Of a stretch of DNA of 64,000 nucleotides, positions 17,552 to 20,500 are shown one piece after another. The notes under the pieces are model-generated. The model worked only from the letters and a program-made list of their open reading frames with translations. It did no database searches and had not been told where the DNA came from. The stretch spans positions 29,475 through 93,474 of the forward strand of contig JAISOY010000042.1 of the NCBI GenBank assembly GCA_031275285.1. The letters run 5' to 3'. This DNA comes from Bacteroidales bacterium (GTDB lineage Bacteria; Bacteroidota; Bacteroidia; Bacteroidales; UBA4181). Both the position numbers and the translations under genes were made by a program. The first letter of the stretch is position 1; each line of letters starts with the position of its first letter.

Positions 17552-20500
17552 ATGATGAGAAAGATTCGAAATAACAAATTTTTAATTGCCTGTTTCTTGT
17601 TTTTAAGTATATATTGTGGTGCTCAGGAGATTTCTGTTGCCTTACCCGATGTAATTCCCGCTTCCCCGGAAGCGGCGGCGCTGGCTAAATATATCAATTA
17701 TCCGGTGGACTACAGTACGGGGTTAACTAAAATTGAGATACCGCTTTATGAAATAAAAACAGGAAGTCTTACTTTGCCTATATCTTTAAGCTACCATGCT
17801 TCCGGAATTAAAGTAAATGAGAATCCGGGATGGATCGGGTTGGGCTGGACATTGAATGCAGAACCGGGTATATCCAGATCCATCAAAGGGAATCCGGATG
17901 AAAAAAGCCAGATCGGATATACGGCTAACGGAAGCCATATATTGAGTAATCTGGATTACCTGATCAAGTTAGCCGACGGGGATAAGGATGAAGAGCCGGA
18001 TGAGTTTTATTACAGATTGTTGGATAAAAGCGGTGGATTCATGTTTAAAAAGAAAGTGGAAACAAACGATCCGGCAACTATCGTTACCCATCCCTATGAG
18101 CCCATACATGTATCATTTTCTCCTGCCAATCGCGCCAAAATAGAAATTACAGATGAGGCAGGAGTCTATTACAGGTTCGGTACTACATTGAATAACACGG
18201 TTCATGTGGAATATAGCGGAACCCTGACGGACCCGGGAGAGGTTACGGGTTGGAAAGCCACGGAAATCATCTCTCCGGATAAGTGCGATACCATACACTT
18301 TTCATATCGATCGTCGGTAGAAAATATATATAATAATGTAGATATGATCACTGTAGAGGATCGTCCCAGTGGATATTGCACCCCATCAGATATTACAGGA
18401 TGTTCGGGAACAACTTTCCCCATTATTGTCTATAAAACGGCTGCTTCCCGGGATCCGGGTCTATGGCGTCTCAATGCAGCTAATCAGTTAGATAGTGTAG
18501 TTTGTGACCATTTTCACCCTCAGTATTTTTCTAAAGTAACCCGGATAAATGGGAAAAAATTATACCAGATCACTTTTCGGGGTGGAAAGGTGCTGTTTTC
18601 TATAGAAGAAACCAATAGTATGGAACCGGAAACCAACTTAAAGTCCATTGAAGTATTTGACAAACAGGATAACTTAATCAGGGAGATCGCATTTGAAAGG
18701 AGCTATTTTGATGTTTTTGTCCCTAACGGGATGGCAACAGCCGTTAACCGGCGTAGCCGGTTGGATGCGGTACATATTAAAGACCGGAGCAGGGATACCG
18801 TAGAAACCTATAGGTTCGGTTATTATTCGGATGGTATTCCTGATCCGGAAGTATGTAAGGATTTCGACCACTGGGGGTATTATAATTTTGACCAGTCCAG
18901 GGGGGAAAACCTTTACAATAAAACGGCGGTACCACTCTGTAACGTAGAAGCCACTAAAGATGGTTACCCTGTTACTTTCCAGATTGGAAGGGCGCATAAG
19001 GAACCGAACGAATACACCATGCAATGCGGCATACTGAACAGGATAGAATATCCTACCGGGGGAACTACTCATTTTTTCTATGAAATGAACCGGTACAGGG
19101 ATAATAACAATCAATTGAAATACTGTGGCGGTTTACGGATCGCCAGCATCCGGGACCATGATCCTGTGACAGGACAAAATCTGTTCCGGAGATTTGAATA
19201 TGGAGCAGGAATTCCCCGATGGAATATTACTGAAAGCGATTATTGTTACGAACAGAAAAATTATTATAAATCTGCCGGATGTGAAACCCGGTACAGAACC
19301 TACCATTCATCTACTTTGACGGATCTGTTTTATTCCAATGGGGTTCCGGTCGTATACGCACAGGTTACCGAATACAGTTCAGGACCAAGCGGTACATTGG
19401 GAAAAACCGTTTATACCTACGACCAGAGTGCTGCTACTTTGTATCCTTTGGAAAGAGTCGGACAAACCAATATTATTCTTAACAGCCGGGCCGGATGGAT
19501 GCTCGGTAAGCTAGCCAAAAAAGAAATGCTGAACAGTGCCGGAGATACTGTTTCTCGTACTACGTACGGATATAAAAAGTACAAAGAGCAGAATATTCAG
19601 GCGGGACTGGCCTACCGGCACAAAAATATTTTATCCGGGGGAGACAATAGATATGATGAAAATATTGAGCATATTACTTACCGGATCTCTACCGGTGCGG
19701 AACGGGTAATTTCCGAAAATACAACGGAAATATTGGGCGGAAATAAATTGAATACCCTGAAAACCTATCTGTTTGACAACTCATCCGATCTGTTATTCCC
19801 GTACCGTATGTTAACCATAGGAAGCGAGGGGGAAGAAATCGTATATGATTATAAATACCCGCATGACCTGACTTTCACAGGAGGGGCGGAAACAGCCAGA
19901 AATCGTTTGATCCAGGACAGGAGGATCAATACCTTAATGCGTACTTCCAGGAGCACCGGAAACGAAAATATCACTACTTCCGTTATATACGGAATGTTCG
20001 GCGGGAGCGCCAGGCCGGAAAGTGTGATGACCAATACCGGCGACAACCATGAAACGGAAACGCGCATACGCTATTATAGTTATGACCGGTATGGTAATCC
20101 CACATGCGTATCCCTTGAAGGAGGCCCCGTCATTGTGTATATATGGGGATATAAAGGGCAATATCCCGTAGCTAAGATTGAAAGCCATACTGCTGCCGGT
20201 GATTATTATACCGTAGTAGCCGGTCTTATCGGTGCGGTAAGGATGTCTCTTTTGGATAATTACCCCGGAGATGATCAGGTACGGGAGATATTCAATGATT
20301 TAAGGAACAGGGAACATGCCCATATCAAAGACGCCATGATCACTTCGTATACCTACAGGCCGTTGACCGGGATCACTTCAGAAACAGACCCTTCGGGGCG
20401 TATCGTTTATTATGAATATGATGATTTCGGTAGGCTTGTCCGTATGAAGGACGAAAATAACCATATACTGAAAGAACTCAGGTACCATTATGCGCAGTAA
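17552..20500 (+). CDS. large exported protein with SpvB/TcB-N-terminus-like motif and C-terminal YD repeats (partner of downstream RHS protein)
   Basis: 982 aa with a signal peptide ...FLFLSIYCGAQE. The N-terminal block PASPEAAALAKYINYPVDYSTGLTKIEIPLYEIKTGSLTLPISLSYHASGIKVNENPGWIGLGWTLNAEPGISRSIKG resembles the LsLsYnS...G.GWsL..s.I.R pattern of SpvB/TcaC-type N-termini. The C-terminus carries YD repeats: YYSYDRYGNPT and YTYRPLTGITSETDPSGRIVYYEYDDFGRLVRMKDENNHILKELRYHY. Confidence 0.75.
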   Translation: MMRKIRNNKFLIACFLFLSIYCGAQEISVALPDVIPASPEAAALAKYINYPVDYSTGLTKIEIPLYEIKTGSLTLPISLSYHASGIKVNENPGWIGLGWTLNAEPGISRSIKGNPDEKSQIGYTANGSHILSNLDYLIKLADGDKDEEPDEFYYRLLDKSGGFMFKKKVETNDPATIVTHPYEPIHVSFSPANRAKIEITDEAGVYYRFGTTLNNTVHVEYSGTLTDPGEVTGWKATEIISPDKCDTIHFSYRSSVENIYNNVDMITVEDRPSGYCTPSDITGCSGTTFPIIVYKTAASRDPGLWRLNAANQLDSVVCDHFHPQYFSKVTRINGKKLYQITFRGGKVLFSIEETNSMEPETNLKSIEVFDKQDNLIREIAFERSYFDVFVPNGMATAVNRRSRLDAVHIKDRSRDTVETYRFGYYSDGIPDPEVCKDFDHWGYYNFDQSRGENLYNKTAVPLCNVEATKDGYPVTFQIGRAHKEPNEYTMQCGILNRIEYPTGGTTHFFYEMNRYRDNNNQLKYCGGLRIASIRDHDPVTGQNLFRRFEYGAGIPRWNITESDYCYEQKNYYKSAGCETRYRTYHSSTLTDLFYSNGVPVVYAQVTEYSSGPSGTLGKTVYTYDQSAATLYPLERVGQTNIILNSRAGWMLGKLAKKEMLNSAGDTVSRTTYGYKKYKEQNIQAGLAYRHKNILSGGDNRYDENIEHITYRISTGAERVISENTTEILGGNKLNTLKTYLFDNSSDLLFPYRMLTIGSEGEEIVYDYKYPHDLTFTGGAETARNRLIQDRRINTLMRTSRSTGNENITTSVIYGMFGGSARPESVMTNTGDNHETETRIRYYSYDRYGNPTCVSLEGGPVIVYIWGYKGQYPVAKIESHTAAGDYYTVVAGLIGAVRMSLLDNYPGDDQVREIFNDLRNREHAHIKDAMITSYTYRPLTGITSETDPSGRIVYYEYDDFGRLVRMKDENNHILKELRYHYAQ

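Follow-up and report, generated by a model that had tools for sequence, protein, structure and literature searches.

RHS toxins count among the most frequent weapons of Bacteroidota, gut Bacteroidales included. Among the closest described systems, the cocoons of Tc toxins make four turns and hold a cargo of ~30 kDa, whereas those of RhsA and of teneurins make three turns and hold ~15 kDa (PMC8765631). A homology has been reported between the plug of RhsA and the N-terminal TcB domain, which acts as a constriction in TcB, and type VI Rhs proteins and teneurins carry a small N-terminal plug exactly at the place where the domain DUF6443 sits in the toxins considered here (PMC8765631). Zhang et al. 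(2012; PMC3482391) described a 'TcdB/TcaC' class of polymorphic toxins with SpvB and a propeller, with Bacteroidetes examples included, and Steele and Moran (2021; PMC8125069) reported Apibacter Rhs proteins with SpvB/TcdB N-termini adjoining type IX cargo genes. Here we compare these systems with a gene pair of a Bacteroidales bacterium (assembly GCA_031275285.1), located in a stretch of 64 kb from contig JAISOY010000042.1 (positions 29,475 to 93,474). This whole stretch is called the window, and coordinates without a contig or locus label refer to it. The pair encodes P0001, a partner protein of 982 amino acids (aa), and P0002, an RHS protein of 2017 aa; an upstream gene encodes P0003, of 451 aa. 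Literature searches, including searches for Bacteroidetes TcB/TcC and for type IX secretion together with YD repeats, returned no description of a propeller-less, signal-bearing partner family, and the term 'DUF6443' occurred in none of the 8.4 million texts searched.

We propose, with a probability of about 0.55, that P0001, exported by Sec and lacking a propeller, is a B-like half shell, which joins the RHS protein in a BC-like cocoon. This reading is based on the homology of the N-terminal domain, the TcB-like predicted fold, the obligate pairing with RHS toxins, the repeated fusion of the two modules, and the ordered junction in the model of such a fusion.

The P0001 gene (17552..20500, stop codon included; this and all other window features lie on the + strand) was read from the translation as the sole long open reading frame (ORF) in its place. 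The protein starts with MMRKIRNNKFLIACFLFLSIYCGA followed by QE, which, read by eye, resembles a Sec signal peptide (aa 1-24, 17552..17623) with predicted cleavage between CGA and QE. The same layout is seen in homologues and in two paralogues from the same genome. Next comes a divergent SpvB-type N-terminal domain (aa 29-255, 17636..18316), delimited by profile-profile comparison with hhalign, which includes the lead peptide PASPEAAALAKYINYPVDY and an LSYHASG...GLGWTL...ISR block. The central region (aa 256-835, 18317..20056) is beta-rich, with long hairpins and a TcB/RHS-shell-like fold predicted from AlphaFold2 secondary structure and confidence (predicted local distance difference test, pLDDT) and from Foldseek. 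The C-terminal part (aa 836-982, 20057..20497) consists of YD/RHS repeats with a helical insert, recognized by Pfam RHS_repeat and TIGR01643, and ends in ...YYEYDDFGRLVRMKDENNHILKELRYHYAQ.

The YD repeats of P0001 read YYSYDRYGNPT at about aa 842-852 and IVYYEYDDFGRLVRMKDENNHILKELRYHY at aa 951-980. RHS_repeat (PF05593) matched aa 941-969 with E 6.5e-5 (23.7 bits, cut-off 22) and TIGR01643 matched the protein with E 9e-6 (26 bits, cut-off 15.8); a match of the RHS_repeat type was also found in 46 of 48 relatives. Territory above the cut-offs is confined to the C-terminal ~150 aa, and the first 940 residues had zero matches in Pfam and NCBIfam. A sequence search against PDB chains returned nothing, and a profile search returned the terminal YD repeats only. 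According to NCBIfam, the Rhs-associated core (TIGR03696) and a C-terminal toxin are absent from P0001, and both are present in the neighbouring P0002. The signal peptide, the N-terminal block and the terminal YD repeats had all been listed in an earlier note on this DNA, and all are present in the translation. That note had also stated that the intervening ~800 aa match nothing, which holds for the sequence libraries and does not hold at the level of fold, where a TcB/RHS-like beta shell is predicted over the middle 600 aa.

The conserved block LPISLSYHASGIKVNENPGWIGLGWTLNAEPGISRSIKG (aa 75-113) is the best-conserved part of the family in an alignment of 48 sequences. P76, G85 and W99 are invariant in this alignment, and Y81, H82, S84, G98, L101 and R109 are conserved in at least 90% of the sequences. 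Bona fide SpvB domains were collected from 301 phylum genomes by six-frame searching with PF03534, and 18 of these Bacteroidota domains were aligned as a profile. Using hhalign, aa 52-255 of the partner-family profile were aligned with columns 20-202 of this SpvB profile (probability 95.9%, E 6e-9). Against a profile of seven canonical proteins with SpvB, FG-GAP, TcdB_midN and TcdB_midC, the family matched at aa 50-254 (profile columns 48-249; E 1e-4) and nowhere else; a comparison with a single canonical protein (35%) was too weak and was not used. By eye, the common motif is G-T-x-x-x-x-[IV]-P-[IL] ... P-x-L-S-[LF]-S-Y-x-S-G ... G-x-G-W-x-L ... I-S-R ... G-x-P. In some members of the partner family (G288:C20, G168:C1, G267:C112), PF03534 also gave a direct match, and its coordinates coincide with those of the family profile. 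Judged by these profile comparisons, aa 52-255 of P0001 is a divergent SpvB domain, and the earlier suggestion that the N-terminal block is SpvB/TcaC/TcdB-like is borne out, though the curated Pfam model misses P0001. Given the reported homology between the RhsA plug and the N-terminal domain of TcB, a plug or gate role of aa 29-255 is plausible.

The peptide that follows the signal sequence (aa 29-51, 17636-17704) ranks with the best-conserved stretches in the family, but its modelled pLDDT is <50. It may take on order only upon complex formation, where it could serve, for instance, as a seal or for docking. A six-frame PF03534 scan of the genome that contains the window found five other SpvB proteins of 1,310-2,803 aa (C21:23254-29175, C28:1-4608, C51:4283-12694, C113:41942-45872 and C167:223-7344), the partner gene not being among them. 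The SpvB domain starts at about residue 700-770 in four of the five, and phmmer detected no RHS similarity between any of them and the toxin of the window.

The fold of P0001 was predicted with AlphaFold2 from the 48-sequence alignment and compared with the PDB using Foldseek. The model (pLDDT 85.3, predicted template modelling score, pTM, 0.84) is nearly all beta, with many long hairpins. Its top matches were TcB chains (YenB) and TcdB2-TccC3 (5kis_A, 4igl_A/C, 9c4k_P and TcdB2-TccC3 entries), with E 4e-20 to 1e-17 and a template modelling score by query (TMq) of 0.32-0.44. Type VI Rhs cocoons (RhsA, Tse5, Tse15, RhsP) were found with similar E-values and a TMq of 0.09-0.18, and teneurins with weaker E-values and a TMq of ~0.1. 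The predicted overall shape of P0001 is thus TcB-like, in part. An assignment of the middle 600 aa to RHS repeats by sequence was considered and rejected, as hhalign against an RHS-shell profile aligned the last YD repeat only. YD motifs are not recognisable in this stretch.

The partner family is large. An exhaustive profile search collected 18,137 clusters at E<=1e-30, and a word-indexed search gave more than 1,000 matches, of which the best name was 'YD repeat-containing protein' and others were 'hypothetical'. In species-representative genomes, a search seeded with nine closer sequences located 451 partner-family loci, and 49 of the 301 sampled phylum genomes contained the family. We took 80 loci for a census of gene neighbourhoods, with 81 family genes of at least 700 aa. 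Seven of these genes were fused in one frame to DUF6443-RHS, 59 had a same-strand DUF6443-RHS gene next downstream, eight were non-evaluable at a contig end, and seven were unpaired despite room for a neighbour. For 66 of the 73 evaluable partner genes, DUF6443-RHS was either part of the same gene or encoded by the next one. In the 59 pairs, the gap was at most 60 nucleotides (nt) in 42 cases, three pairs overlapped, and ~15 gaps of 400-650 nt held a small exported ORF.

The same association was found within and between genomes. The genome under study has three complete pairs out of three (C96, C108, C143), and a fourth RHS gene, at the edge of a contig, has a partner-family fragment next to it. 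Both families were present in 46 of the 301 phylum genomes, the partner alone in 3, DUF6443 alone in 8 (mostly weak matches) and neither in 244, which corresponds to an odds ratio of ~470 (Fisher p 3.5e-42). Among named control genomes, that of Bacteroides thetaiotaomicron gave a DUF6443 match. The P0001 family is an obligate partner of DUF6443-RHS toxins. The earlier note had considered that homologues might commonly occur without an adjacent RHS gene; given 66 of 73 genes paired or fused and the co-occurrence across genomes, they do not.

Natural fusions place the two modules in one polypeptide, in the order partner module, DUF6443, RHS, core and toxin. At the level of loci, they were seen in Alistipes sp. 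CAG:514 and related gut contigs (L008-L011) and at L045, L074 and L026; one whole fusion from Alistipes measures 2,090 aa. In gut metagenomes, they account for more than 100 clusters with 46-95% identity, some of which represent hundreds of sequences. In two other families of the phylum (f29, f51), most genomes with matches had both domains in one frame of 1,770-2,450 aa. The modules are joined without a linker (...YYDYDGLGRL...YSYSYG-AAAGGNRIRARDYL...), and the start of DUF6443 (GNRIRARDYL...YHDRLGRPIETV) lies within ~10 residues of the last partner YD repeat. The counterpart of this DUF6443 start in P0002 is NYVHTII...YFDGLGRPIQNV.

We modelled the junction on the Alistipes fusion (aa 697-1884), from the final 274 aa of the partner module, across DUF6443, to the RHS repeats and the core. 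The underlying alignment was restricted to fused and RHS rows; partner fragments were left out because MAFFT placed them over RHS repeats. The model (pLDDT 83.8, pTM 0.81) has uninterrupted strands across the join, with pLDDT 86-94, so that the junction is shown as ordered in the predicted structure of the fusion. In Foldseek, TcdB2-TccC3 fusions were its best matches (E 1e-31, TMq 0.45-0.49), and TcC chains were matched with a template modelling score by target (TMt) of 0.57-0.58. The earlier note had likened the gene pair to a split BC cocoon with differing sizes and domain orders, and this comparison is upheld by the TcB and TcB-TcC fold matches and by the natural fusions.

A protein of 3,848 aa at L108:1224-12767 combines SpvB, FG-GAP, TcdB_midN, a DUF6443-like segment and RHS, and similar giants of 3,300-3,900 aa were found in G087:C90, G211:C1 and G027:C1. 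In these chains of canonical type, DUF6443 therefore also sits between B-like and C-like parts.

The sizes of shell and cargo can be compared with the described cocoons. From DUF6443 to the core, the fusions measure ~865 aa (RHS repeats ~730 aa) and the split forms 821-1,268 aa. Adding the ~950 aa of the mature partner gives a shell of ~1,800-2,000 aa (~1,815 aa with the fusion length). By our own estimate, TcB minus the propeller plus the TcC shell amounts to ~1,800 aa (PDB chain lengths of ~1,450 aa for TcB and ~670 aa for TcC, with an assumed propeller of 330 aa). The cargo that follows the PxxxxDPxG[LM] motif has a median length of 225 aa (interquartile range 213-235, n=22), and 250 aa in the window. 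Such a cargo comes near the ~30 kDa held by four-turn Tc cocoons and exceeds the ~15 kDa of three-turn RhsA.

With TcB (YenB, TcdB2; PDB 4igl, 5kis, 4o9x, 6h6g), P0001 shares an SpvB-type N-terminal domain, an RHS-like beta shell, and C-terminal YD repeats that abut the next protein. As in Tc systems, its gene lies directly 5' of, or is fused to, that of an RHS protein with the Rhs core autoprotease motif and a C-terminal toxin. Unlike TcB, however, P0001 is ~500 aa shorter, and neither the FG-GAP propeller (the TcA-binding gate) nor TcdB_toxin_midN/midC was detected by hhalign with the family profile; Pfam likewise gave no match to FG-GAP, VCBS or TcdB_toxin_midN/midC in 48 family members. 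P0001 also has a Sec-type signal, whereas the canonical Bacteroidota BC-like proteins that were checked (L106, L107) have none, and its RHS partner differs from that of TcB in carrying DUF6443, a signal peptide of its own and a display module. The TcB-binding domain of TcA, PF18276 (TcA_TcB_BD), was not found in the genome under study, in a search made without a positive control.

The other described systems are less similar. The single-chain Bacteroidota toxins with SpvB, FG-GAP, TcdB_mid and RHS (PMC3482391, PMC8125069) belong to the same phylum, have an N-terminal domain of the same superfamily and continue into an RHS toxin, but they keep the propeller and the mid domains, which the partner family has lost; the latter is Sec-exported and usually encoded by a separate gene. 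Type VI Rhs effectors (RhsA, Tse5, Tse15, RhsP) share the YD repeats and the cocoon principle. In contrast to them, P0001 has no PAAR, prePAAR or VgrG according to Pfam and NCBIfam, carries a Sec signal, and matches poorly in global fold. Teneurins and bacterial teneurin-like proteins (PDB 6fb3, 9ifo; PMC13018210) are similar in that a C-terminal toxin is enclosed or carried by a YD shell, but they are single-chain, their structural match is much weaker, and no FN-plug or NHL propeller was seen in P0001.

At the junction of the two genes in the window, the TAA of P0001 (20498-20500) and the ATG of the longest P0002 ORF (20490) overlap by 11 nt (ATGCGCAGTAA). In-frame alternative ATGs at 20517 and 20523 would leave a gap of 16-22 nt and no overlap, and they reproduce the spacing between Met and 'MTG(L/V)GCD' in the paralogue on contig C108. 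Judged by sequence, both are as plausible as 20490 for the RHS start, and translational coupling is therefore unproven. The overlap noticed earlier is real, but co-translation and matched stoichiometry were overstated, as an overlap is no proof of either. A downstream RHS ATG with a promoter of its own had also been considered. Such an ATG is possible, but the maximum of 22 nt between the genes leaves no space for an independent promoter, and a motif search of the window found no Bacteroidetes-type promoter motif between the P0001 and P0002 genes. One such promoter-like motif (TTTG ... TAnnTTTG) lies at 17395..17426, ~126 nt 5' of the P0001 ATG. The motif has two matches in the 64 kb versus 3.2 expected by chance, so it is not enriched, and its position alone is suggestive.

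Several observations weigh against P0001 as a half shell. The curated SpvB hidden Markov model PF03534 misses P0001 (E<=0.1) and all 48 family members (E<=1), and the middle 600 aa had no hhalign match to canonical TcB middle regions or to an RHS-shell profile. The likeness of P0001 to TcB is partial, with a TMq up to 0.44, a TMt of 0.25-0.31 and a large root-mean-square deviation. Seven of the 73 evaluable partner genes have no adjacent RHS gene, at least two of them being artefacts of our criteria (two tandem partner genes precede the RHS gene at L012, and the overlap exceeds 100 nt at L013). No type IX C-terminal sorting domain (type A/B CTD) was found in P0001 or P0002 with Pfam and NCBIfam, and the exit of a folded cocoon of ~300 kDa from the periplasm is unexplained. 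In addition, the part of P0002 from DUF6443 to the core, with ~1,080 aa, matches entire type VI Rhs cocoons in length (1,020-1,050 aa as PDB chains), so that P0002 might close on its own, and the junction model also resembles type VI Rhs cores (TMq 0.35-0.46, TMt 0.39-0.47). The last two points, together with the small plug at the place of DUF6443 in type VI Rhs proteins and teneurins (PMC8765631), favour an alternative in which the DUF6443-RHS protein closes itself, with DUF6443 as the plug, and P0001 is a TcB-derived module that docks outside (as holding chaperone, surface anchor or adaptor, or gate) and is no part of the chamber. Pairing and fusion would fit any tight physical partnership and not just a shared lumen, and the small exported ORF between the two genes at ~15 loci would also suit external docking. 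On the other hand, the fusions lack a linker, their strands run continuously and confidently across the join, and BC fusions are the best match of the junction model. The fused RHS part, with ~865 aa and repeats of ~730 aa, is TcC-like rather than a full cocoon, a cargo of ~225-250 aa is large for three turns, and it would be strange for an adaptor to be built as a 950-aa half shell. We regard external docking as possible, without considering it probable.

Two further explanations concern the meaning of the gene pair itself. P0001 has its own signal peptide, 7 of 73 family genes have no adjacent RHS gene, and 3 of 49 genomes have the family without DUF6443, all of which would be compatible with a surface or secreted protein that acts independently (for instance as an adhesin or as an RHS-like shell without cargo) and is encoded next to RHS genes through co-regulation or co-mobilisation in polymorphic-toxin islands. 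We consider this improbable, as order and strand are conserved phylum-wide with 42 of 59 pairs at most 60 nt apart, fusions are found in several distinct lineages, the odds ratio for co-occurrence is ~470, and both the fold and the homology of the N-terminal domain indicate TcB, a cocoon subunit, in particular. Even more improbable, to the point that we give it hardly any weight, is decay of a once-fused BC-like gene that was split by a recent mutation, with the 982-aa ORF as a fragment without a role of its own. The 11-nt overlap of the ORFs and the existence of fused versions elsewhere could be read in this way, but P0002 has its own signal peptide and a 650-aa module before DUF6443, P0001 ends at the conserved C-terminus of the family, and split genes, each encoding a signal peptide, recur at 59 loci in many families, with three paralogous pairs in the genome under study.

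If P0001 is indeed a B-like half shell, Sec would carry both P0001 and P0002 through the inner membrane. Once periplasmic, P0001 would pair its final YD hairpins with DUF6443 and the initial RHS strands of P0002, and the two proteins would form a single unbroken BC-like cocoon, with about four turns, around the 250-aa toxin that autoproteolysis has set free. One pole would be closed or gated by the SpvB-like end of P0001 and the other closed by the Rhs core, and the variable N-terminal module of the RHS protein would protrude at the seam and probably bind the target. The complex of the split proteins, their shared lumen and the plug or gate role of the N-terminal domain are what we infer for this system. 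Among the roles of plug, chaperone, adaptor and outer-membrane export partner offered in the earlier note, the evidence favours a shell or plug part. The genome encodes SprA, and type IX secretion may be a non-canonical route for P0001 and P0002. More tentatively, the pair could be the core of a widespread Bacteroidota toxin-delivery system: a two-piece BC-like cocoon assembled after Sec export, in the periplasm or at the surface, without a TcA syringe or a type VI apparatus, aimed by the N-terminal module of the RHS protein and with the SpvB-like end as a releasable gate. We would call this broader proposal possible and still doubtful.

The P0002 gene (20490..26543 as the longest ORF, alternative starts 20517 and 20523) encodes a DUF6443-RHS toxin with its own signal peptide, followed by a 650-aa N-terminal module before DUF6443. 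This module begins with a DUF1565-type beta-helix and continues with two PPC-like modules. DUF6443 itself (aa 689-830, 22554..22979; Pfam E 6.8e-42) follows the partner module in the fusions and is the putative docking point for the partner C-terminus. The RHS shell (aa 831-1682) and the Rhs-associated core (aa 1683-1767; TIGR03696 E 9.5e-10), in which the cleavage motif was located at the terminal PLKNIDPDGM, span 22980..25790. The toxin domain at the C-terminus, 250 aa long (25791..26540), has a sub-threshold similarity to DUF4347 (E 0.0017). An exported ORF of 166 aa (26543..27043) overlaps the RHS stop and is a candidate immunity gene by context only; neither it nor the other downstream immunity candidates had a Pfam match.

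Every downstream RHS protein has a signal peptide of its own, then a variable N-terminal module of 0 to ~770 aa, and then DUF6443. This layout would fit a swappable targeting part. The N-terminal module of P0002 (20490-22529) and the paralogue at C108:1-3131 have a common motif, ...MTG(L/V)GCD.... Another contig of the same genome (C116:3-14870) contains at least seven same-strand RHS C-terminal fragments, orphan toxin cassettes related to P0002.

Upstream of the pair, P0003 (15938..17293) is an exported protein of 451 aa without a Pfam match, which we regard as an optional accessory. Relatives of 470-570 aa were found in 12 of the 80 related loci, mostly directly 5' of the partner gene and mostly in genomes of Chitinophagaceae type; with so few loci, P0003 was rejected as a core part. 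The flanks of the locus contain housekeeping genes (purA, aminopeptidase P, a HAD hydrolase) and no secretion or type VI genes.

Further exported proteins are encoded at related loci. The ORFs between partner and RHS genes encode 140-185 aa and belong to at least three unrelated families (for example L035:13209-13649, L017:13544-14080, L032:4068-4490, and ~12 other loci); they had no Pfam match save one weak GSHPx-like one, and the pair in the window has no such ORF. In ~15 loci, tandem arrays of two to six exported proteins of 270-570 aa lie directly 5' of the partner gene (such as L019:6562-9747, L039:7051-9913 and L021:6459-9841). Their N-terminal parts are variable, and the C-terminus, ...GNVGIGT..P...L.V.G.I.A.EV.V...WPDYVF...Y.L.SL.EV..YI..N.HLP.IPS... 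and then a coiled coil, is common to them. They had no Pfam match and, judging from this shared end, look like another conserved accessory family. The contigs of five loci (L009, L010, L011, L049, L058) are binned in metagenome-assembled genomes labelled Phoenicibacter, Eggerthellaceae, Limnohabitans and Subdoligranulum; mis-binning of Bacteroidales contigs is the probable cause, rather than transfer.

For the partner family, which comprises at least 18,000 clusters named only 'YD repeat-containing' or 'hypothetical', the comparison provides an identity as a TcB-derived obligate partner of DUF6443-RHS toxins. DUF6443 would gain a specific function, that of the seam at which the two proteins meet. 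The principle of building a cocoon from two proteins, as in Tc toxins, would thereby extend to a setting without a propeller gate and without TcA.

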